Below, one piece after another: positions 2,849 to 32,829 of a DNA stretch of 64,000 nucleotides; the stretch's first letter is position 1; each line of letters starts with the position of its first letter. The position numbers were made by a program, and so were the translations under genes. Location of the stretch: assembly GCA_964016885.1 (NCBI GenBank), contig OZ024756.1, positions 20,584,001 to 20,648,000 of the forward strand. The letters run 5' to 3'. The stretch comes from Eledone cirrhosa. Its lineage: Eukaryota. The notes beneath the pieces are model-generated. The model saw only the letters and a list, made by a program, of their open reading frames with translations, made no database searches and was not told where the DNA came from.

Positions 2849-3202
2849 TTATACTTATATATACACTATATATAATTATAAACAGGAAAGGTCAGTAATT
2901 CATTACCACCTTATTACTAATAAGAAAAATAGCTCAAATGTTTTACAGAGCCGGAATATAAATTACAGAATAATCAAAACTATGTTCAAAACATTTTGAA
3001 CATCATCATCATCAACTTCATCGTTTAACGTCTATCTTCCACACTAGCATGGGTTTAGACGGCGGTTTTGATTATTCTGTAATTTATATAAATATATATT
3101 CTTTTTTTTTGTTTTGGATTATGTTATACATAAGCCTTGCATCTTCGAAATATATATATAATAAAATAAATAGAGATGATCTAAAATAATTATCTTTTTT
3201 TT

Positions 3203-3279
<77 letters not shown>

Positions 3280-3554
3280 CATATATATATATATGTCTGT
3301 GTGTTCAAGAAGAAGGAGGACGTTAGCTTTTTCTGCAGCATATCACATAATTGGATTTTCATCTGAAGATATTGTTCCCATACCAACAACAAATACATAC
3401 GTTACATCTTGGATTACATAAAGGAACCATTGAAATAATTATAATGAATAAACGATTTATGTAACACACACACACACACACACATATAAACACACACACA
3501 CACACACATCACCCTTGCAAGCAGGGAAGAGCGGACGTAAAATGATGATGATGA

Positions 3555-3855: not shown

Positions 3856-4247
3856 TCATCATCATCATCATACGTCCGCTTTTCCCTGCTTGCAAGGGTG
3901 GGACGGGAACTGATTCTGGCTTGATCTCTACAGCTGGATGCCCTTCCTAACACCAACCTCATTTACAGTGAGTGCTGGGTGCTTTTTTTTTTTCCGTGCC
4001 ACCTCCACGACCACTCTACAGTATGGGCTGGGTGCTTTTTTTTTGCCGTGGCACCTCCACGACCACTTTGCAGTGGAATGATAGGGACCCCAGTCCCTAT
4101 CATCTCATTTCTACAGCTGAGTAAACTGGAGCAATGTGAAATAAAGTGTCTTGCTCAAGGAAACAACACATCACCCGGTCTGAGAATTGAACTCACAACC
4201 TTTCGATTGCAAGGCCAATGCTCTAACCACTAAGCCATGTGCCTCCA
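3856..4247 (-). mobile_element. tRNA-derived SINE (family 1), with an internal duplication
   Basis: Reverse complement of 2199-2544. Confidence 0.85.
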
Positions 4248-4423
4248 TGCCTATATATATATATAATTGGTGTGGGATGCTTAAAGCGTCCGTAAGTGGT
4301 AGGCCGATTGAGCACTCGATGCTCTTACAGAATATAATATTACATAAGAAACGGAGAATCAGTGGTGCTACGAATAAAATTTATTAGACATTCGTAGCAC
4401 CACTGATTCTCCGTTTCTTATGT

Positions 4424-4475
<52 letters not shown>

Positions 4476-4717
4476 CAAAGGGATATTTAATTTGTTGGTA
4501 ATTCAACAAATATATATATTTATAACAGATTCGAAGCACTTGACAGGTTTTCTGGAGTATAATATCAATGATATTAATAAATGGAAACTATATTTATAAA
4601 ACCATATTTATTCTATTATATATATTTCAAGGGTACCAAAACTTTGGTACGCTATCTGGTAAAACTTGAACCGTTAAGGTCTCATTCCTGGATAAGTCAA
4701 TATTTATAAAAACTCTG

Positions 4718-4778
4718 TATTTTATCTGATGAGAGCGTACCAAAGTTTTGGTACCCTTGAAATATATATAATAGAATA
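4718..4778 (+). ncRNA. Minimal type I hammerhead ribozyme motif (family A)
   Basis: Stem I TATTTTAT/ATAGAATA, CTGATGA at 4726-4732, stem II GAGCGTACC..GGTACCCTT, GAAA at 4759-4762, palindromic TATATA stem III, predicted cleavage after AUA (4770). Confidence 0.8.
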
Positions 4779-4819
4779 AATATGGTTTTATAAATATAGT
4801 TTCCATTTATTAATATCAT

Positions 4820-4857
<38 letters not shown>

Positions 4858-6195: not shown

Positions 6196-6981
6196 AATAT
6201 ATATACATACATATATACATACATATATATATGTAGTCAGTTATACTTATTGATATGTGTGTGGGAGAAAAGTTGATTTCCAAACACATGATGCTGCTGC
6301 TACTGATGGTGATGGCGGTGGTGGGGAGGATGGTAGTGGTGGCGATGGGGAGGATGGTGGTGGTGGTGGCGATGAGGAGGATGGTGGTGGTGATGGTAAT
6401 TGATAATTTAGAGTAGTGAAGTAGTAGTGACTGATAATGTTGGTAGTAGTAGTGGTGGTGGTGACGATAATGCTGGTAGTAGTAGTGGTGGTGGTGGTGG
6501 TGGTGGTGGTGGTGGTATATGAGCCAACCAGCAGACATAGTAAAAGGTGTTGGTGCTGGTAGAAGTAGTAGAGTAGGTGAAAGGAGAAATGAAAGAACTT
6601 TTGTTAGGTGGTGATGGTGTTGGTGGTGGTAGAGGTGGTGGTGGTGGTGGTAGAGGTGGTGGTGGTGGTGATGGTGGTGGTAGAGGTGGTGGTGGTGGTG
6701 GTAGAGGTGGTGGAAGGAAGAAGTTGGGGGGAAAGGTTGCTTTGCCATTGATGAGAAGGAAAAACTGAAGATTGCACACAGCAAGAAACATAAGAACTGA
6801 CATTGAAGGTAGACAGATGGGGTGGATGACATAATGGTGGGTATGAATGGTGGGGGAACCACTGCTCATAGGGAAATGCCTATCTCTCTCACACATATCT
6901 ACATACACACATATACCTATATAATGTACATGCATGCGTGTGTGTCTCTCTCTCTCTGTATATATACATATATACATATAT

Positions 6982-7320
6982 GGAGGCACATGGCTTAGTG
7001 GTTAGAGCATTGGCTTTGCAATCGAAAGGTTGCGAGTTCAATTCTCAGACTGGGTGATGTGTTGTTTCCTTGAGCAAGACACTTTATTTCATATTCCTCC
7101 AATTTACTCAGATGTAGAAATGAGATGATAGGGACTGGGGTCCCTATCATTCCACTGCAAAGTGGTCGTGGAGGTGCCACGGCAAAAAAGCACCCAGCAC
7201 TCACTGTAAATGAGGTTGGTGTTAGGAAGGGCATCCAGCTGTAGAAATCAAGCCAGAATCAGTTCCCGTCCCACCCTTGCAAGCAGGGAAAAAGTGGACG
7301 TAAAATGAAATGATGATGAT
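6982..7320 (+). mobile_element. tRNA-derived SINE (family 1)
   Basis: Near-identical to 2199-2544, flanked by (TA)n. Confidence 0.85.
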
Positions 7321-10705: not shown

Positions 10706-11421
10706 CTCTGCGCATGTTATATTAATACAGCAAAGACAATTAGTTAAACATTGGAGTCTGAAAATAACTCCACAAACAAGATCAATCAGTTGTCATCACT
10801 TTCATTGACGTCAAAGAACAACAAGAAGACAGGAAAGACCTGACATTAAATATAGAAATAAACAACTAAATACACTGTTTTGTTTGGGGATTTATGACTG
10901 GGAGCACACACACACACCCACACCCATCTCCTCCCTGCGCCCCCTCACTTGATAGATTGACCAACAGATTTCCTTGCAGTAGTTGTTCCCACTTGTTCCC
11001 TGAGCTTGGAGTTCAAATCTCACTGCTACATTTGTTATTGAATCGACCTCAGAGGGTTTTCAACTGAGAGAGGCTGAGGACTGGAATGAATACTGCAAAT
11101 AATTCTGTCTGACGTTCTAACAACTCTGCCAATGACCCTATGTGTGTGTAAAAATATATATATACTAGCAGAATGGCCCGGCGTTGCTCGGGATTCTAAA
11201 CATAGATTGGCATGTTTATCCCTCCTTTCTGAAACAGTACAGAGAAGCACGGAATACCTCGGCCTGGGGATGGTGTCTACGTTTTGTGCTTATAAAAAAA
11301 AATTTGTCATAGATTACCAGGGGTTTAACTTAATTGGGTGCCTGAGAGTAAAATGTTCAACCCTCGAAAGCCAAGACGATAGGGTTAAGTAAAAAGGCAT
11401 TCGACAAACCAAACATGTATT

Positions 11422-12262
11422 TGTTGTGCTATGGTACAATGAAAGCAATAGTTACAGAGCAGTAAGCATGTGGGACTGCAGTGGTGGAGAGTGGTGTTGT
11501 CTTACTGTAGTGCTATGGTACAATGAAAGCAATAGTTACAGAGCAGTAAGCATGTGGGACTGCAGTGGTGGAGGGTGGTGTTGTCTTACTGTAGTGCTAT
11601 GGTACAATGAAAGCAATAGTTACAGAGCAGTAACCATGTGGGACTGCAGAGGTGGAGAGTGGTGTTGTCTTACTGTTGTGCTATGGTACAATGAAAGCAA
11701 TAGTTACAGAGCAGTAACCATGTGGGACTGCAGTGGTGGAGAGTGGTGTTGTCTTACTGTTGTGCTATGGTACAATGAAAGCAATAGTTACAGAGCAGTA
11801 AGTATGTGGGACTGCAGTGGTGGAGAGTGGTGTGGTCTTACTGTTGTGCTATGGTACAATGAAAGCAATAGTTACAGAGCAGTAAGCATGTGGGACTGCA
11901 GTGGTGGAGGGTGGTGTTGTCTTACTGTTGTGCTATGGTACAATGAAAGCAATAGTTACAGAGCAGTAAGCATGTGGGACTGCAGTGGTGGAGGGTGGTG
12001 TTGTCTTACTGTTGTGCTATGGTACAATGAAAGCAATAGTTACAGAGCAGTAACCATGTGGGACTGCAGTGGTGGAGGGTGGTGTTGTCTTACTGTTGTG
12101 CTATGGTACAATGAAAGCAATAGTTACAGAGCAGTAAGCATGTGGGACTGCAGTGGTGGAGGGTGGTGTTGTCTTACTGTTGTGCTATGGTACAATGAAA
12201 GCAATAGTTACAGAGCAGTAAGCATGTGGGACTGCAGTGGTGGAGAGTGGTGTGGTCTTACT
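11422..12262. repeat. 84-bp minisatellite, 10 copies
   Basis: Exact 84-nt period (420-nt offset equals 5 units). This explains the 28-aa repeat ORF at 11426-12310. Confidence 0.95.
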
Positions 12263-12469
12263 CCTTTCAATGTTTCATCGAATCTTCACCAATTGATGCA
12301 GAAGCCCTAATGAAAAGTGAAGTCCCCATGGGTGAATAGGCAAATAATTTTCCATTACGATTTTTCAAAAGCTTGTAATTGCGTTCCTTCTCTTTTTTGT
12401 AGTTGTTTTTGCTGCTGTTTATATTTTGTTTTTGTGTATGCAAAAATATCTGTACATGACACGAATATA

Positions 12470-17760: not shown

Positions 17761-18350
17761 TTGTATCACTACATCAATAGCCTGCGCATCGGTGTTTCCT
17801 TGAGGCTCGGCCTCCGGATCTGCGAGCCACACCAATGTCGCTGCGGATCCACTGTGGACCCTTTCGGCCTCCACCCGCTTTCCTGTCGCCACAGTGCCGG
17901 CCGCCTTCCACGCCATGCTGCCCTCAACGAGGTCATAAAGCATGGCTTGGACGCTGCAGGCTTCCCTTCCCAGTTCGAGCCGGTGGGGCTGGACCGAGGG
18001 GACGGCAAAAGGCCAGATGGCATGACGATCTTCTTGTTCCGTGGTGGCAAACCCCTTGTCTGGGATGCTACTTGCACCGACACTTTCTGCGGCCGCAACC
18101 TGGTGCAGTCTGCGACTGACCCAGGTTCTGCTGCACGTCGGGCTGAAGAGGCCAAGCCCCTCAAATACTGGTCACTCTCCGACAGGTTTGTGTCCTCGGC
18201 CCCAGGGCTACCTCCCTACTCACCACCATAGGCGCTGAGCTGGCCAGCCGCAGCTGTGAACCCAGCGAGTTGGAGTGGCTTTTCCCTTGCTGTCCTCCGC
18301 GGGAACGCCTTCTCCATCCTGTCCGCCGGGGCTGTGGGGGGGCCCCATCA
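17761..18350 (+). mobile_element. CRE-like non-LTR retrotransposon 3' fragment (Cys/His finger plus restriction-like endonuclease)
   Basis: HQCRCG..GLHPLSC..GRLPRHAALNEVI..EPVGLDRGDGKRPDG..LVWDATCTDT. GC-rich island, disrupted near 18190. Decayed relatives at about 41115-41480 and 53366-53540. Confidence 0.8.
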
Positions 18351-18583: not shown

Positions 18584-21012
18584 ATTAAACATTTCATACG
18601 CTTATCAAAGGAGTGCTTAATTATTGGAATATATAAACTGCTACTGCCACAGCCAAACAGTAATATTGAAAACAAATTCAAAATATAAAATATTTTTAAA
18701 AAAACGCCATAGCAACAACTGTCAAACCTACAACCTTACCACCATAGCCACCACCACACCACCACCATCACTATTAGCAACACCACCACCACCACCATCA
18801 CACCACCAACATCAACATCACTATTAGCAACACCACAACCACAACCACCACCACCACCACCATAGGATTCTCTACCTGTGTGTTTGTGTGTATCTGTTTC
18901 AATCTCATATATATGTGTGTGTGTGTGTGTGCATGTTTCACTATTGTGTGTGTGCTTCAATCTCATCTATATATATGTGTGTCTGTGTGTGTGTGTAAAT
19001 TCCCGAGTTGTGTCAAGGGGTAATCACAGTTAAAAAAGGGTACTCAATACATTGATAGAGGCATTTTTATTAAATATAGAAATGACTTCTACAGGACTAG
19101 AACTGTTTCATTCATATGAAATCATCAGGAATGTCAGATATACAGGACTCAGGAATGTTAGATATACATATATATATATATATATATATTTTTAAAAACT
19201 CGGGACATCCAATGGACATGTGGTTAGAATGTCTCAGGAAAGAATCGCTGGACAGATCTGTAGCTCGGAGATCAGAGAGTCACTCCAGGTAGAGCCACTA
19301 CTTCTCCAAATTGAGAGATCACAGCTCTGATACTATGGGCATGTGGTTAGAATGCCGTAAGAAAGAATCGCTGGACAGATTTTATGGGCGAAACCAACTG
19401 GCAAGAGACCCAGGGGTAGACCCTGAGCAAGATGGTTAGATAACATCCATGAGCTTGGCTGGTCTCGCTTGGAGATCCAGCCGGATCAGTTGGAGATGGT
19501 TGCTTCTGACAGGACCCGCTGGAGGGAGTGTTTGAGGATGCCCCCATGACCTTCTCAGGAATAAGTGAGCAAAGAAGGGAACATTCAAGAAGTTTTCCTA
19601 AAAAAAATTTGTGGATCCCTTTCTGAAAAAGGTTGTGCATCATTCTTCTGTGCAGTTGTATGTGAAAGTGCAGCTGTGCACCTCTTGAAACTCACTTAGC
19701 AGCTTAGAACCTTTGATACCAAACCTCCTGAAACTTTCAGCAGGTTCTATGATACTATGTTGTTTATATTTATTTTAAAACCTTCCATCATAATTTCATG
19801 TAATAACCTTTGTTATGTTTCAAACATCAGCTAAACAATGAGAAGTTTAGTTGGATTTAGTTTTAATTCAATAAGATATAAAACACCCAGTCCACTCTGT
19901 AAAGTGGTCATACTGGTGACATGAGAAATACAGCACTCAGTCCACTCTGTAAAGTGGTCATACTGTGACAGAGAAAGCACCCAGTACACTCAGTAAAGTG
20001 GTCATGTTGGTGACACAAAAAAGCACCAAGTTCACCCTGTAAGGTGGTTATACAGGTGACACCATGAAAAAGCACCCAGTCAACCTTGTTAGATGGTTGC
20101 TTCATTGCAATGATAAAGATCACCCAGTCTACACTGTAACGTGGTTGGCATCCAGCCATAAAAGCCAAGCTAAAATACAGGCCCATATGAGCAAGACGTG
20201 GTCACCTGAATTGACTTGTCCCAATACCTGATAAACCTATCTAACCCATGCAAATGTGGAAAAATAGATGTTAAACGAGAACGATGACGATTTAAAATTA
20301 AGAAATTAACCATGCATTGTATAAGAATGATATAAAGAACAGAAGTAGGGAGGCGATCCAATTGGCATGGGCCTGGCATTTTGAGAGGGCCTATGATTGA
20401 GACAAAGAAGGGGACTCTTTGGTAAAAAATTACCCCTTTTTTTATAAACCATTCCAGTTCTTTTAGTCCGTTTTGTTACATATACTCGGGTCTCGAAAAA
20501 TCGCCCCTCCCCCTTCCCACTTAATATTTCAGACCCTTTCTTCCTACCCTGCTCTTATTCCAATGCCCCCACTTATTAAATTAGGCTAATCTGTCTCCAG
20601 CAAAATTTTTATTCAAGTGGTAGCATTCTTGCGACATTGAATTTTCTTTAGACATTCATTAAAAGACATTATACATGACCCCAAAAGTACATTACTAGAA
20701 ATCCCATACATCATAAAATAAATTGAGGAGGATGAGTGACCTCAACATGGGCAATCTGTGACCTCAAGATGGAGGACAAGTGACTTCAACATGGAGAACC
20801 AGTGATCTTGACATGGACAATCTGTGACCTCAAGATGGAGGACAAGTGACCTCGACATGGAGAACCAGTGATCTTGACATGGACAATCTGTGACCTCAAG
20901 AACTAGTTTAGTGACCCCTCAATACCAACAGCTTTGTTAATGGATTTTCTTTTTAATGAAATTTTGCAGGTGTATGGTTTTCCATGATGTAGATTACAAT
21001 AATGTTAATGGA

Positions 21013-21058
<46 letters not shown>

Positions 21059-22046
21059 CACACACAGGAGAGAGAGAAAAATTTTACCTCTCTATATACC
21101 CTCTCTGCATTGAGTACTCCCATGATTTGTGGTCTCCTCGGTCTCAGCACTACAGACTCTCAAACTCTCTAAATATATATATATATATTAAAATAACAGA
21201 TTAAAGTTTAAGCAAAGAATCGCTGCTTTCACCCTTAATGGGATCTCCTGAAGGGTGAAAGCAGCAATTCTTTGCTTAAACTTTAATCTGTTATTTTAAT
21301 AAATATTTGCTCTAGGGTTCTTATATATTTGATATATATTTATCCTTATCGAGCCCTCTTTGGATTTTAGTCTTCAAATTTATTATTATTACTATATATA
21401 TATATATATTTATATATTATTTCAAGTATTACATCAAAGCTGAAACTACAATAAGGCAACACGAGTTGAATTATCTGAGAGAGTCCCTAAACACACTCAA
21501 TGATGCGAGAAATGAATTAATTCCGCCATCAGAGTGAACACATTAAGGAGGGGAAACACCATGAATAATATATAGACCAGGTGTATGCCAACTATAGTAT
21601 ATAAACAATGACGAACATATATATATATATATATATATGAACAGTCGATCAACAAGATCCCAGATCTCATTCGCTTAATGAGTGGGGTGGAGCTCGTCAA
21701 ATCGGACCAAGGAATCAATGTTTCCATTGGTCTGTCCAATTGCTAATACAATCTACCGGTCACTTAGAATCCTCAAACACTCCTTCCAACAGATCCTGTC
21801 AGAAGTAACAGTTTTTAACTGATTCGGCTGGATCCCTAAGCGAGACCAACCAAGCCCATGAATGTTATCCAACCATCTTGCTCGGGGTCTACCCCTGGGT
21901 CTCCTGCCAGTTGGTGTTGCCCATAAAATAAATTAATAAATAACAAATAAATAATGTTTTATTTCTTTTAAATTTCATGGACATAAACCTAATCTAAACT
22001 TTTGAAATTGTAGATCAGCAAAATTTAATTTTAAAAATATTCATTG

Positions 22047-22486
22047 TTAACCCTTTAGCAATATATTACTCTATATATACTATTGTATTTTCATGTTAAC
22101 CCTTTAATGTTCAAACCGGCCAAAACCAGCCAGAATTCTCTACCTCTTTCTGTTGAAACTGGCTGTAACTGGTCACCAAACTGATGTTAAGGTATTGTTC
22201 TCAAAATAAATACTTTCAAAATCTCATAGATTCGATATTATGTGAGATAATTATCCGAGGTAGAGCCTTTACCTTGAAAATTATATAGAGTAATGTGAAT
22301 GCTAAAGGGTTAAAGGCTTTATCTCACATAATTATCTCACAATATTGAATCTACAAGATTTTGATATTATTTATTTTGAGAACAATACCTTGACATCAGT
22401 ATGAGTGGCCAGTTACGGCCGGTTTGACTAGAAAGAGGTGGGAGAATTCTGGCCGGATATGGCTGGGTTAAATGCTAAAGGGTTAA
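22047..22486. mobile_element. TTAA MITE nested in a copy of itself
   Basis: Outer copy 22047-22486 is interrupted by an inverted inner copy at about 22097-22313 at a TTAA site. Confidence 0.65.
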
Positions 22487-26400: not shown

Positions 26401-29400
26401 GTAAGGGTTTATTTGGGATCAGGGCCCTCCAAAGGAGTCAACAACAACAATAACATAGATAGAATCAGAAGATTTCACCATAATTATAACAAATATTACC
26501 TACCCTTCGCAGTGTTTCCAATTCTGTTCCAAATATTTTCTGTTTCCTCCATCACAGAAAATCGCAGGGTTTTATTTTTGTTGCCTTTTTTTTAAATTTG
26601 CTTTCGACTTCGTCATTTTACGTCTATCTCCCTCTTTCTCTATTGCACTTTATCTCTCTGTCTGTGTTTCCCTCTCTCTCTTTCTCTTCGTCCGTCTTAC
26701 TTCCCTCTCTTCTGTCTGTCTTATTTCACTCTCTCCATCTATCTTACTTCCCTCTCTCTCTTCTCTCTGTCTGTCTTATTTCTCCCTCTATTCTGTCTGT
26801 CTTATTTCACTCTCTCTCTCTCTGTATCTTACTCCCCTCTCTCTCTTCTCTTTGTATTCCCCCTCTTTATCTCCGTCTGTGATACTTCTCTCTCTCTCAC
26901 TTCTGTATATCTTATTTCCCTCTCTCTTTGTCCGTCTGTCTTGCTACCCCTCTCTCACTCTCTCTCTCTTTCTCTGTATTTCTCCCTCTGTCTCAATTTT
27001 TCTCTTTCCCTCCCTCTGTCTCAGTCTCATTCAAACCTGACGCTTCGCTTGTTTTGATTCTTGGGTATTTTCCCGTCGTTTCTCTATATTTCCTTGTTTG
27101 TCTCTAAGCTTGATGTTTCGTTCATTCATCGAGTTCGTTCAGTCTCCATTATGTTATTCATTCATTAATTAAATTCGTTCAGTGTTGTTTTTTTCAGTCA
27201 TTCATTCAGTGAATTCGTTCAACCTTCTATCTTTCTTTCATTCATTTACTTAGTTCCTTCGCCGTTCTCTCATTCATTCAATGACTTCCACCCGTATTCA
27301 TTCTTCTATTACGTCTGTTAAGTGTTCTTTCATTCATTCGTTCACTAAATTCGTTCAATGTTCTGTCATTCGTTTAGTTAGTTCGTTCGGTAATCCGCCA
27401 TTCATTCATTTAGTTCATCGAGTTCGTTCAATGTTCTTTCATTCATATTTCCTTCAGATATTTGTAACGTCACATATCATTTGCCATTCCTTCACAAACC
27501 ACATTAGAAGCACCTATTGTCTTTCTATCTTCTATTATATCAAAGCTGGTGTATCTGTAGGGTAAAAAGTCTGTCACGTTGTGAACAAGGTTTGGTAATA
27601 AAAGTATGTTTGTGTGCGTGAGAGAGAGGAGGGACGGTAGTGGGGCCGAATTATTATTTTCAAACCTATACTACAAAAATATTGTTTATCCACAAATTAT
27701 ATGAATAACATATTCAATTTTGGGAGTTTATATATAAACTTATAAATAAAATATTTAGATAGTCATGTTGATTATTAATACTTTGCAGTTATTTCTAATC
27801 AAACCGAGGAATTCCCACGGAGGCTGTTAGCCAGTCATTATCATTGCAGCAGGGTCGATAACATAAAGTACCAGTAATGCACTGGAATAATTGCTGGCCT
27901 TGTGCCAAAAGTAGAAACAATTATTATTGCAACTGTTTTTAAAAAATAGCCATTTCAAACTAGACAAACAATATTATTACTGTAATTCCCCGTAATGTTG
28001 TGTTGTGTTATTTTTTTTCTGTGCGTTTAACGACTTACATGTACGTCTGTTTGTCTTCAGTCGCTTTCTTCCTTCCCGCTATTTTTTTGCTTCTGGCAAC
28101 ACCTCCGCGATTTCTTGGAGTTCTTTATTGTCTTTTTCTTTTTGGTTATCGTTTGTTAATAACAAAGTGCTTTCTCCTGCTTCCATATTTGTTGTTGTTC
28201 TTGTAATAATTCCACAACATAAAAACTTGGAGAGAATAGGAAATACAAAGAGAGAAGATATATATATGAAGACGTCTCGCAGATTCTACTTTCATACGTT
28301 GTACTTATTTTTACAAAGTGACGCAAATAATGCCGGCATGATGCGTTTCGCTGCCATTATACTTTGCCTTTCATCCTTACGGGGTCGATAAAATAAAGTA
28401 CCAGTAATGCACTGGGAAATTGCTGGCCTTGTGCCTAAAGTAGAAACAATTATTATTATTGAGTATTAACTTTGCCTAACATCCTTACGGGGTCGATAAA
28501 ATAAAGTACCAGTAATGCACAGGGGTAATTGCTGGCCTTGTGCCAAAAGTCGAAACAATTATTATTGAATATATAGAGAGGGGGAGAGAGGCGTGCTATA
28601 TAAAACCATGTTATTCTGTGATTAGAGAACAGACTTACTTTACTTATGAGTTCTTTTTCCCCTACATGTGTTAATGTTGTCGTGTGTGAGTATGAAAGAC
28701 TGCTTGTGCGAAAGTGAGAGAAAATAGAATTTTGTGATAGTGTTCGTGTGTTGTCAGGTGTGTAAAAATGTGTGTGTGTGTGTGTTAGTTCGATTAAGTG
28801 GATGAAAGAGAGACTGTGTTGGTTCAAGTGAGTATGTGGGTGAGAGAGAAAGAAAGAGTGTGTGCGTGTTAGTTGAAGTGAGAAAGTGTGTGTGTTAGTT
28901 CAAGTGGATGAGAGTGTAAGTGGAATGGTTAATAGAGAAAGCGAAAGATATGGAGGGGGGAGGGTATACCATAGAGTGTGTGTGTGTACGTAAGTGGAAT
29001 GGTTAATAGAGAGAGAGTGGCGAAGAAAGTGTGTATTCTTATGTGTACAAAAGAAGGGGAGAGGGGGATAAAGATTTTGTAGTAAGAGTACGTATGTGTT
29101 CGGTATTGTTTGCATGTTCATGCGTGTGCACGTGCACGAATTGCAGGTGATGTATGCATTTGAGAGAGAGGGGGGGTTAAATGTATGATTTTTAGTTTGC
29201 CATGCAGTTGTTGGCATGCAGTGTAGTGTGGTCTATTATTATAGATGCATAAATTGTTGCGTGTGTGTATTATTTGCGTGAGTTGAACAATGTAGGACTT
29301 AGTTAACATGTGTTGGTAAGGACGTACACGTACAAACTGTGCTGTGTAGTACGTCTGTGAATTAGTGTAAACACACATCTTTAAAGTACAGTCAAAATGG

Positions 29401-29588
29401 AATAGCACTGAATAATATATATATATATATCTATATATATATATATGTGTGTGTGTGTAGAAGTTCTATTTAAATTGTTGGGATACAACAAGCAAATATT
29501 TTTATAACTGATATAAAGCACTCAACAAACTATTGGAGTAAAAATACGATATATTAACAAATGGAAACTATATTTATAAAACCATATT

Positions 29589-29653
29589 TATTTCATTATA
29601 CATATTTCAAGGACACCAACTTAAATTATGGTGTGCTTTCATCAGATAAAATA
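29589..29653 (-). ncRNA. Minimal type I hammerhead ribozyme motif (family A)
   Basis: Minus strand reads TATTTTAT CTGATGA AAGCACACC..GGTGTCCTT GAAA TATGTATA^ATGAAATA. Confidence 0.75.
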
Positions 29654-29875
29654 TAATATAGATCAGTTTTATAAATAAATATTGACATACTCTTAAAGAA
29701 TGCGACCATTTCTGTTGGAAGCTCCCGGATAGTGTCCTTGAAATATGTATAATGAAATAAATATGGTTTTATAAATATAGTTTCCATTTGTTAATATATC
29801 GTATATATATATATATATATATATTTATTATATTTTTGTTTTTCAAATCCACTTTCAATAAATACACCAGGATTT

Positions 29876-29935
29876 TTTCATTCTGATGACTGAAAGCAAA
29901 TGTGTTTGCTTTCAAGAAACCACTGGTAAATGAAA
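29876..29935 (+). ncRNA. Type I hammerhead ribozyme motif (family B)
   Basis: TTTCATT CTGATGA c-TGAAAGCAAA tgtg TTTGCTTTCA-a GAAA CCACTGGTA^AATGAAA. 7-bp stem I, 10-bp stem II, GUA cleavage triplet. Confidence 0.8.
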
Positions 29936-30216
29936 TAATTATCTTATGTTGTTTATTACATAACTATATCAGCCCGTAGGTTGAGGAAAAGGAGGAGGAG
30001 AGGAAAGGAGTACAAGCTCTTCGTACTCCTGGAGATGAGGGTTGCACATTTTTTTTCGGGGGTATGTGTTACCCATATAAACTGTCTCCCTCTATTGGGG
30101 AAAATCGACTAACTTTTAAATTCCATCTGTGATAACATTTTACACGTTTTTATTGTATGTAAACTTCCCCCTTTGTATTTGTCCCCTTCTTTTGTGCCCC
30201 TGTGGCTAATAAAGAA

Positions 30217-30260
<44 letters not shown>

Positions 30261-30364
30261 TAGGTAATTCCGAAGAAAAAGCAAAGGGAAAAAGAGTGCT
30301 CTATGTATAGAACAGAGCTATTTAATTAGAAAGTGAACAACACACTATATAGAGTTTTTATCAT

Positions 30365-30432
30365 CTCTGTCTGATGAACGATCTAGACATATATCAATAT
30401 TGTCTAGGGTCCAGAAACCTTTGGTAACGGAG
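30365..30432 (+). ncRNA. Type I hammerhead ribozyme motif (family C)
   Basis: CTCTGT CTGATGA ..GATCTAGACA..TGTCTAGGGTC.. GAAA CCTTTGGTA^ACGGAG. Base of stem II is mismatched. Confidence 0.65.
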
Positions 30433-30470
30433 TAGTTATATATTGTGTTGTTCACTTTCTAATTAAATAT

Positions 30471-30508
<38 letters not shown>

Positions 30509-31422
30509 TTTACGTCCGCTTTTCCCTGCTTGCAAGATATATATATATATAATTGTTTCTACTTTTGACACAAGGCCAGCAATTACCTCAGTACATTACT
30601 GGTACTTTATTTTATCGACCCCCGTAAGAATGAAAGGCAAAGTTAACCTCGGCAGGATTACAAGGGTGAATGGTTACTCCTTCATTACGTTTATTGGTTG
30701 GTGACGCGCATTTCGCTACTGATCAGCTCAAGGTTTGGTCTGTATCGATCTAGCCTGACTCTGGAATCAAAAGCTCGTGGGACCTCTGTGGTAGTGATGT
30801 CAGAATGAAACACAGGTGAGCCTACAGTAACTCTGCATCACACTCCCTGGATATATATATATATGTGTGTGTGTCTGTGTGTGTGTGTATGTGTGTGTGT
30901 TAAGTATTTCCGTAGAAAAGGTAAAGGAAAGAAAGACCTCTGTGGTAGTGATGACAGAATGAAACACAGGTGAGCCTACAGTAACTCTGCGTGACACTCC
31001 CTGGATATATATATATATGTGTGTGTATGTGTGTGTGTTAAGTATTTCCGTAGAAAAGGTAAAGGAAAGAAGAGTGCTCTATCTATAGTACAGAGCTATT
31101 CAATTACATAATAAACAACATAATATAATTATTCCATTACCAAAGGTTTCAGGAAACATGAAACGTCCAGCTCGTTCATCAAATGAAACAGTTAGCATAA
31201 CTCCTTCATAGTCAGCCTGTGAACTCTTCAGTGGACCCTTGTATATATATATATATATATATATCATATATATATATATATATATGATACAGTGAATTAC
31301 TACTAGTGGTGGTACCAATTTGAGCACTCGAACCACAGGCAGAATGTATATAATAAGAAAAAAGTTTTGTTTACATGTTCTTATGTTTCTCTTGAGTTTC
31401 AACCGTTACATGCGTTTCACAG

Positions 31423-31519
31423 ATGGCTGGCTCAAGGTCACTTATGGAAACCATGAACCTGACTCCAGCATCGATGAAACTTCATTGTTTTTTCTTCTTA
31501 TACATCAGATTTTCCCGCG
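31423..31519 (+). CDS. Candidate exon of an unidentified gene (DGWLKVTYGNHEPDSSIDETSLFFLLIHQIFPR)
   Basis: TTTCACAG acceptor, GT donor at 31520, unique island among repeats. Phase-compatible with the next two exons. Confidence 0.4.
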
Positions 31520-31568
31520 GTGTGATCAGCCTTGTGTGTGTGCGTGTATGTGTATATATATATATATA

Positions 31569-31910
31569 TCATTCATCATTCATTTCATTTTACGTCCACT
31601 TTTCCCTGCTTGCAAGGGTGGGACGGGAACTGATTTTGGCTTGATTTCTACAGCTGGATGCCCTTCCTAACACCAACCTCATTTACAGTGAGTGCTGGGT
31701 GCTTTTTTGCCATGGCATTTCCACGACCACTTTGCAGTGGAATGATAGGGATCCCAGTCCCTATCATCTCATTTCTACAGCTGAGTAAACTGGAGCAATG
31801 TGAAATAAAGTGTCTTGCTCAAGGAAACAACACATCACCCAGTCTGAGAATTGAACTCACAACTTTTCGATTGCAAGGCCAATGCTCTAACCACTAAGCC
31901 ATGTGCCTCC
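31569..31910 (-). mobile_element. tRNA-derived SINE (family 1)
   Basis: Reverse complement of 2199-2544, flanked by (TA)n. Confidence 0.85.
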
Positions 31911-31971
31911 ATATATATATATATTATTCAAAATATTAATAAATGAAAAATATTCTCATAACCAAAATATA

Positions 31972-32034
31972 TATTTTATTATACATATTTCAACGGTACA
32001 ATGGTGTTTAAGTACATTTTCATCAGATAAAATA
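31972..32034 (-). ncRNA. Minimal type I hammerhead ribozyme motif (family A)
   Basis: Minus strand reads TATTTTAT CTGATGA AAATGTAC..GTACCGTT GAAA TATGTATA^ATAAAATA. Perfect 8-bp stem I. Confidence 0.7.
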
Positions 32035-32619
32035 TATGAGAGATTGGATATGCGACATACCGCCAAGGTTTTGATTATTCAATTCCTGTAGTGGAATTGA
32101 ATACATAAGTCTTGTTTATGGAAGACCAACAATCACCCATGCATATCAGTCTCCCCTGTCCATGCCACCGATCTTGTCCAAGGGAAAGGCAAAGGCCAAT
32201 ACAGCTTGGCACCAGTGACTTTGCAACTCATTTCTTCACCTGAGTAAACTGGAATAACATGTAATAAAATGTCTTGCTCAAGGTCACAATGCATCACCTG
32301 GTTCACCTGGTCCAAGAATCGAACTCACAACCTCCTGATTGCAAGCCAGCCCGATGCTCTAATCTCTAAGACATGTGCCTTTACACACACACACACACAC
32401 ACACACGTGTGTGTGTGAATGTGTGAGCCCCGGGTGCAGCCACAGTAAGGTACTCAATACATTAGTAGAGTGTGTACAATAAATTTAATATAGAAATGGC
32501 TTCTACAGGTCCGTTTCCTGATGATTTCCTTTGAATGAAACGGTTCTAGTTCTGTAAAAGCCATTTCTATATTAAATTTGTTATATATATTATATATAGA
32601 CACACACGCGAACGACAAA

Positions 32620-32829
32620 GCATAAATGAATTGAGAGAGAGACTGAGCATAAGAGGAATCAAATGCTGTGTGCAGGAGAGGCGGATGCATTGGTATGGAC
32701 ATGTGATGCGTATGAAGGATGACAGCTGCATAAAAAGCACTAGAAGTCGATGGAAACCGCGGAGTGGGGAGACCCAAGATGACCTGGGATGAGGTGATAA
32801 AAGCCGACCTTACCCAATTACACCTCTCA
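32620..32829 (+). mobile_element. RTE LINE fragment truncated by the assembly gap
   Basis: ERRMHWYGHVMRM...GRPKMTWDEVIKADL. Confidence 0.7.

Follow-up and report, generated by a model that had tools for sequence, protein, structure and literature searches.

A hammerhead-bearing fold-back repeat in Eledone cirrhosa, probably a truncated insertion of a Penelope-like element

According to Craig et al. (2021, PMC8557442), insertions of Penelope-like elements (PLEs) are strongly 5′-truncated and often accompanied on the 5′ side by a truncated copy in inverted orientation, a tail of 30–40 bp may lie at either end, and hammerhead ribozymes reside in the pLTRs. The same source describes an insertion bias towards (TA)n and microsatellites, with (TA)n in nearly all families of the Hydra clade, the proteins of which carry RWK, DKT and CxCX5C motifs and no CCHH, and it reports non-autonomous pLTR-forming Chlamys elements. 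In vitro, a PLE protein nicks and extends both strands of AT-rich DNA, reverse transcription begins inside an AC-rich stem-loop, at two positions that delimit the tail, and the hammerhead is assisted by the protein and dispensable for insertion (Frangieh et al., 2024, PMC11167929). Type I hammerheads with a palindromic helix III occur in pLTRs, for the most part as lone truncated motifs; single hammerheads of the pLTR type number in the thousands per genome, show covariation within families, and cleave weakly and in a dimer-dependent manner (Cervera and De la Peña, 2014, PMC4209133). Recently active Penelope families have been reported in Octopus vulgaris (PMC13282606). A further kind of hammerhead repeat, the non-LTR retrozyme, consists of tandem units of 150–450 nt that make circular RNA, and solo monomers are common (preprint 10.64898/2026.07.22.740005; PMC7229834).

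In this study, the window is the whole stretch of 64,000 nucleotides that was analysed (Eledone cirrhosa, contig OZ024756.1, positions 20,584,001 to 20,648,000), a microsatellite-rich, low-GC DNA with tRNA-like SINE repeats. The repeat at 29.6 kb, here called E2, is a hairpin-shaped sequence of 346 bp with no ORF in the copy and with (TA)n at both ends (Table 1). An earlier note on this DNA had placed two arms of about 72 bp at 29545-29616 and 29732-29803; they are a perfect inverted repeat of 73 bp (29544-29616 and 29732-29804) with a spacer of 115 nt, and 72 bp is also a fair count because the 73rd pair merges into the (TA)n tract. The same note had delimited the element as 29545..29803, which captures the fold-back and misses part of the extent, since a tail at about 29459-29543 falls outside those coordinates. 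The minus strand of E2 folds at −117.6 kcal/mol (z = −20.7), and none of 200 shuffles folded as low.

Table 1. Positions of the fold-back repeat E2, of its parts and of related hammerhead elements in the window.
Feature	Position	Strand	Remarks
(TA)n tract, then (TG)6	29415..29458	.	In element sense the tail ends in (CA)6, then (TA)n; read from sequence
E2 tail	29459..29543	-	About 85 nt, beyond the inverted repeat and absent from its other side; homologous to the E1 tail
Tail motif CTCY-N11-17-RAGYRCY	29517..29538	-	Begins 5 nt beyond the tail-less end
E2 direct arm	29544..29616	-	Contains stem II 3′ strand, GAAA, stem III, predicted cleavage site and stem I 3′ strand
Type I hammerhead motif	29589..29653	-	Intact core, 9-position stem II, short palindromic stem III
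E2 stem I	29653-29646 with 29596-29589	-	8 bp
E2 CUGAUGA	29645-29639	-	Core
E2 stem II	29638-29630 with 29617-29609	-	One C-C mismatch, A-U closing pair
E2 GAAA	29608-29605	-	Core
E2 stem III, AUA-UG-UAU	A17 at 29597	-	Short palindrome, 8 nt
E2 region upstream of hammerhead	29654..29731	-	5′ junction at 29731; homologous to 4654-4717 of E1
E2 inverted arm, tail-less	29732..29804	+	Truncated inside stem II; identical to direct arm
(TA)n tract, tail-less end of E2	29805..29825	.	Read from sequence
E1 (4.6-kb copy)	4484..4825	+	Tail 4484-4561, inverted arm 4562-4653, hammerhead 4718-4778 (+), direct arm 4734-4825, then (TA)n
E3 (31.9-kb copy)	31920..32140	-	Hammerhead 32034-31972; upstream limit approximate
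Family B hammerheads	29875, 30363 (cores 29883, 30371)	+
Family B hammerhead with C3-to-U core mutation	near 31182	-
Family C hammerhead	19128	-	Element 18998-19167 (-)
Family C hammerhead	32518	+	Element 32420-32585

E2 resembles the PLE insertions described in these sources (PMC8557442; PMC11167929) in that a type I hammerhead lies near its 3′ end, an inverted 5′-truncated copy is adjacent, a tail is present at one end only, and the target is a (TA)n microsatellite. E2 is unlike the insertions described there in that no ORF is left, the tail is 78–85 nt instead of 30–40 nt, and there is no tandem pLTR; by eye, the tails of the Hydra consensus sequences in the supplement of PMC8557442 look 50–70 nt long. 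We consider it likely that E2 is a heavily 5′-truncated insertion of an endonuclease-positive PLE together with the hammerhead of its pLTR, and our best guess from the sequence is that the parent was Hydra-like. This anatomy has already been described for PLE insertions, and the small extras of the present case are the tail motif, the (CA)n repeats at tail ends and the nearly shared 5′ junction.

Two further copies of the same family (family A) occur in the window. The homology to the 4.6-kb element E1 that had been claimed from the first inspection holds, with 66 identities, 7 mismatches and 3 gaps over the arm, and the tails of the two copies (78–85 nt) align with 58 identities, 18 mismatches and 7 gaps. 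The hammerheads of E1 and E2 point in opposite directions although both tails lie to the left of the left arm; that is, the tail continues the direct, ribozyme-bearing arm in E2 and the inverted arm in E1, and the interior is flipped relative to the tail. Both inverted arms end inside stem II. All three copies reach (TA)n at the same homologous point, which lies 53 nt beyond the cleavage site in E2 and 55 nt beyond it in E1; in E3, which has neither an inverted arm nor a tail, the tract likewise stands at this short end. The arms are identical within copies (73 of 73 positions in E2 and 92 of 92 in E1) and differ between copies by the mismatches and gaps given above; therefore, each insertion most likely drew both of its arms from one template, with later gene conversion as the alternative cause of the identity.

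To account for the observed anatomy, interior flip, arm identity and shared ends, we infer a nick-and-prime mechanism from the in vitro work on PLEs. The PLE protein would nick both strands of a (TA)n tract, and the nicks would prime two cDNAs that copy one RNA sequence: one would start at the distal site and include the tail, the other would start at the proximal site and lack it. One cDNA would run through the hammerhead to about 70–90 nt upstream of it, the other would stall in the GC-richer stem II, and repair would join the two head to head. Because either cDNA may be the longer one, both orientations of the interior relative to the tail are expected. The hammerhead would be the pLTR ribozyme of the parent, which would cleave as a dimer or with protein help in the parent RNA. 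Snap-back copying of one cDNA, instead of two primings, would give identical arms just as well.

The hammerhead motif was located with a descriptor scan, which gave six matches in the window against a mean of 0.02 (maximum 1) in 100 block shuffles; in Rfam, no hammerhead model passed the gathering score anywhere in the window, and none reached E ≤ 10 in 29400-32700. In E2 the motif is on the minus strand (29653-29589), and cleavage is predicted from the sequence to occur between 29597 and 29596, which is 53 nt from the short end, all within the direct arm, and about 135 nt from the tail end. The catalytic core is invariant in the three family A copies, and helix III is palindromic, with a loop III self-duplex of −2.2 kcal/mol. 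Family A resembles the min-HHR of PMC4209133 in the core (CUGANGA/GAAA/UH), the long helix II, the short palindromic helix III, and the U-rich 5′ and AU-rich 3′ context; unlike the min-HHR as described there, it has no extra nucleotide after A9, no G10.1-C11.1 pair, a helix I of 8 bp, and an internal mismatch in helix II. The claim that the complete ribozyme overlaps the 3′ arm of a minus-strand transcript was correct, and the overlap is 28 nt. In a secondary-structure model, forcing the hammerhead fold costs 5.4 kcal/mol for the motif alone, 6.2 kcal/mol without the inverted arm, 42.1 kcal/mol in the whole of E2, and 59.7 kcal/mol in the whole of E1, and the mean target pair probability of the hammerhead in the whole of E2 is 0.00. 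The perfect arm is thus predicted to sequester the 3′ half of the ribozyme, so that the hairpin stops the ribozyme from folding; in a read-through transcript, the inverted arm is made first and would capture that half. Because its ribozyme is predicted to be silenced by the 73-bp duplex, E2 is likely a dead product.

The earlier note had further observed that stem II of E2 differs from that of the 4.6-kb copy and still pairs (GCACACC/GGTGTCC versus GCGTACC/GGTACCC), that stem I keeps its pairing with a shifted G-U pair, and that these compensatory changes argue for selection. The letters are as given, and two pairs of stem II do covary. However, stem II does not pair in full, because a C-C mismatch is present in both copies; the shifted G-U pair of stem I reflects a one-sided A/G change opposite an invariant U; and the case for selection is partly supported, given this one-sidedness, the loss in E3 of two stem II pairs that E1 and E2 keep, and the shuffles that match the covariation. 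In the alignment of the three copies, pairing holds in 91.7% of cells, a level that 21 of 500 shuffles reached, and pairs changed on both sides number 2 of 20, both in stem II and both in E2 only, a result that 47 of 500 shuffles reproduced. Stem I has two one-sided changes across the three copies, position 4 of stem II never pairs in any of them, and the closing pair of stem II is A-U in two copies and G-U in one. When the five differences between E1 and E2 were placed neutrally on the 18 letters of stem II in a simulation, all pairs were kept in 1.3–10% of trials, and all pairs were kept together with two double changes in 0.4–1.7%. The compensated pairs lie side by side and together make up a GT/AC swap; therefore, they need not be independent, and one or two events could suffice. 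A common variant at 29634, found among the 40 of 113 differences listed in the contig comparison, turns an A-U pair of stem II into G-U or G-C (307,229 of 821,729 depth, or 37%, in the contigs of run X1). The evidence leans towards a maintained stem II, as expected of a PLE hammerhead, without reaching significance. Because the fold-back makes ribozyme formation cost E2 about 42 kcal/mol, selection, if real, probably acted on the source retroelements. The covariation evidence says little about this locus, and the changes in stem II likely reflect how subfamilies of the source elements evolved.

When ten downstream regions were aligned, a common motif emerged just beyond the short end (Table 1). 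It stands at the start of the E2 tail and is shared by four further elements with hammerheads. The strict pattern has five matches in the window against a shuffle mean of 1.0 (maximum 4 in 100 shuffles), and the relaxed pattern, which is needed to catch E1, has 10 against 7.4 expected and hence no window-wide enrichment; the pattern was set after published and window examples had been seen, and so these enrichment figures are generous. All five strict matches fall in hammerhead-bearing elements, and 8 of the 10 relaxed matches fall in the tails of such elements. The motif in its relaxed form, present in the tails of both E1 and E2, arises in 12 of 5000 local shuffles of each tail, the pattern again being post hoc. 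TGAGYRCT alone is not enriched in the window (12 versus 7.6), and six tails folded alone had no excess structure (z from +0.6 to −1.3). Tail-motif elements that bear no hammerhead were also seen at 4270-4423, 21186-21400 and 31270-31400, the first two being fold-backs with perfect arms of 34 and 35 bp that end in (TA)n.

According to the consensus sequences supplied with PMC8557442, a similar motif can be seen by eye in the 3′ tails of three of six Hydra consensuses (Hydra-2_Amil, Hydra-2_Ajap and, as a variant, Hydra-1_Crog) and twice at the 5′ start of a fourth, Hydra-1_Ajap, and three tail-less Hydra consensuses end about 35–46 nt past the cleavage site. Family A is like the Hydra clade, Hydra-1_Obim included, in its insertion into (TA)n, in a short end about 35–55 nt past the cleavage site, and perhaps, judged by eye, in a motif of the type CTCY...GAGYRCT just beyond that end. 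The comparison covered the Hydra consensus ends and the Naiad file, and one similar string is present in the latter, so the motif may not be specific to Hydra. Most Hydra hammerheads in that source combine a 9–10-nt stem III with a mismatched stem II base, a pattern that families B and C fit by eye; in family A, stem III is 8 nt long and stem II is closed by an R-U pair. The stem III of family B has the ACCA-N-TGGT pattern known from Hydra-1_oBim, and that of family C is like the one in several Hydra hammerheads (PMC8557442); family A shares neither.

A second feature of the tail ends is a (CA)n repeat, which follows five of nine tail ends and none of seven short ends (Fisher p = 0.034, with ends picked by eye and B1 left out because its tail could not be placed); as general background, (CA)n is present at 10 of 188 ends of (TA)5+ tracts. 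Among 15 (TA)n-(TG)n junctions, five lead into tails (one of them a local duplicate), eight lie in microsatellite arrays, and two lie elsewhere. Repeats of this kind stand between tail end and (TA)n in three different families, at 29446-29458, 30218-30259, 31018-31037 and 18976-18997; the tail of E1 has none. Slippage at the AC-rich start site of reverse transcription would explain (CA)n at tail ends.

The two other hammerhead families in the window repeat the PLE-like anatomy. The family B element at 30258-30469 consists of a tail, an inverted arm, a hammerhead, an arm, and a microsatellite, and the family C element at 32420-32585 has the same plan of tail, inverted arm and hammerhead in an older fold-back with imperfect arms. 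We rejected these imperfect arms as proof of two RNA templates because ageing explains them. The family B elements span 29830-30200 (+), 30258-30469 and 31036-31245 (-), with a stem III of ACCA-C-TGGT or ACCT-T-TGGT, and a local duplication of about 175 bp at 30780-31060 repeats a family B tail end with its (TA)n(TG)n tract. In family C, a short stem II is closed by U-U and stem III has 4 bp, as in the Hydra-clade motifs. A family-A-like hammerhead with a poorly paired stem II of 61 nt, followed by (CA)n, lies at 3355-3480 (+), and a 3′ half-hammerhead without CUGAUGA lies at 3140-3220 (+). The window also holds a young repeat family of about 325 bp, 95–96% alike (2182-2508, 4039-4265, 6963-7292 and 31600-31924), which includes a tRNA-like part (Rfam tRNA match at 31840-31903) and is likely a SINE; a long imperfect palindrome with a 24-bp perfect core (22100-22480); an inverted repeat with a 25-bp perfect core that encloses a SINE-like piece (2956-3089); and about ten tandem copies of an 84-bp unit, 96–98% alike, with a plus-strand open frame (11338-12393). 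The C-terminal part of a frame at 17770-18230 (+) resembles the cysteine knuckle and restriction-like endonuclease of a non-LTR retrotransposon, and this frame has no Pfam match.

Family A appears, from contig depth, to be highly repeated. In run X1, 78,684 contig pieces were placed on 29300-31300, and the summed contig depth, which is neither a copy number nor a measure of expression, was 0.8–1.5 million over 29501-29701, 0.3 million over the tail end, and 2–4 over 29300-29433. Contig pieces matching E2 were also found in runs X5, X6 and X7, from three other organisms. A parent with coding capacity was not found nearby: among 150 of the 374 candidate frames of at least 45 aa in the window, no Pfam match, and hence none to a reverse transcriptase or GIY-YIG domain, reached the curated cut-off, and the four sub-cut-off matches were not related to PLEs. 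Exact-pattern scans for families A and B gave nothing in metagenome contigs, prokaryote genomes and viral contigs, and a sigma-70 promoter scan stayed at chance level, with a model that is irrelevant to a eukaryote. The motifs of families A and B are absent from the supplement of Craig et al. (PMC8557442), and a search of the supplement of Frangieh et al. (PMC11167929) gave no matches. In the open literature covered by this search, we found no paper on family A, the tail motif or (CA)n at tail ends.

A truncated PLE insertion has to be weighed against other sources of such a repeat. The nearest is a short non-autonomous PLE parasite, an RNA of about 270 nt, made up of the upstream part, the hammerhead and the tail, with its own fixed 5′ end, that would be mobilised in trans by a PLE protein. 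The insertion chemistry is the same and the two readings overlap; they differ on the source RNA, a defined mini-element versus random truncation. The upstream homology of E2 to E1 reaches within about 12–20 nt of both 5′ junctions, which places these junctions near the same homologous point; all eight hammerhead copies examined in families A–C retain at most about 105 nt ahead of the core; the X1 contig depths ahead of the core and over it agree in order of magnitude; and non-autonomous relatives are known from Chlamys (PMC8557442). However, the alignment at the junction loses support as the junction is approached (p = 0.0008 for the first 35 nt and 0.027 for the first 20 nt), and the first 12 nt align no better than chance (p = 0.30). 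Moreover, E3 appears to run farther upstream, with weak homology, families B and C have varied 5′ junctions, and contig 18 of run X6 matches E2 to 29720 and then continues with unlike sequence. Because truncation is strongly 3′-biased, nearly coincident 5′ junctions are plausible without a defined source RNA, and we regard the parasite as possible but doubtful. Its boldest form, which we consider unlikely, is that family A is a protein-free mini-Penelope: a hammerhead RNA of about 270 nt with a fixed 5′ end that would borrow a Hydra-like PLE enzyme through a conserved CTCY...GAGYRCT recognition motif between two start sites of reverse transcription, twin-prime as a self-silencing fold-back in either orientation, and have the telomerase-related reverse transcriptase stutter (GT)n onto the target at the distal site. 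If this were true, the stuttering would explain why (CA)n is seen at tail ends and never at short ends.

Family A also shares with non-LTR retrozymes the small, non-coding character of animal type I hammerhead repeats linked to PLE pLTRs (PMC7229834; preprint 10.64898/2026.07.22.740005), and a solo derivative of a retrozyme with a chance inversion would fit the type I hammerhead, the size of about 270 nt, the low GC and the common occurrence of solo monomers. However, unlike the retrozymes in those sources, the family A copies are dispersed and inverted, none of the three in the window is a head-to-tail tandem, and their ends map 53–55 nt and about 135 nt past the cleavage site, not to it; the one-sided tail and the inverted copy are also marks of PLE insertion. 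The solo derivative is accordingly quite improbable, and a tandem retrozyme was rejected because the window contains no head-to-tail units of family A. The long perfect inverted arms and TA-rich flanks recall a MITE or fold-back DNA transposon carrying a captured hammerhead, with the arms as terminal inverted repeats. Against this, the arms are not terminal, a homologous tail is present on one side only, arm lengths differ (73 versus 92 bp), E3 lacks the arms altogether, and the arms consist of ribozyme sequence and track the variants of each copy; conserved terminal inverted repeats at both ends were not found, and this reading, largely refuted, is rejected as very improbable. As little probability attaches to a locus-specific ribozyme or hairpin RNA gene selected by the host. 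The intact core, the pairing-compatible changes in stem II and the common 29634 variant that keeps stem II paired, within the same 40 of 113 differences listed, would suit such a gene; we rejected it because E2 belongs to an abundant dispersed repeat, a read-through transcript is predicted to favour the hairpin over the ribozyme fold, and the absence of any difference between the arms suggests a young insertion.

The truncated PLE insertion accounts for the fold-back and the ribozyme together in a single reading, and as it stands, E2 is an ordinary repeat remnant. We believe that the value of such copies lies in their being fossils of PLE insertion, the mechanism of which the cited papers still call unresolved. 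These short, fully readable copies show both tail orientations, stem II stalls, a common motif that lies between the short end and the tail end, and (CA)n bordering the tails. Such features can be counted genome-wide, and they offer the available in vitro assay of PLE insertion a candidate binding motif. Furthermore, if many perfect hairpins of 70–90 bp sit in transcribed regions, they may be a source of double-stranded RNA.
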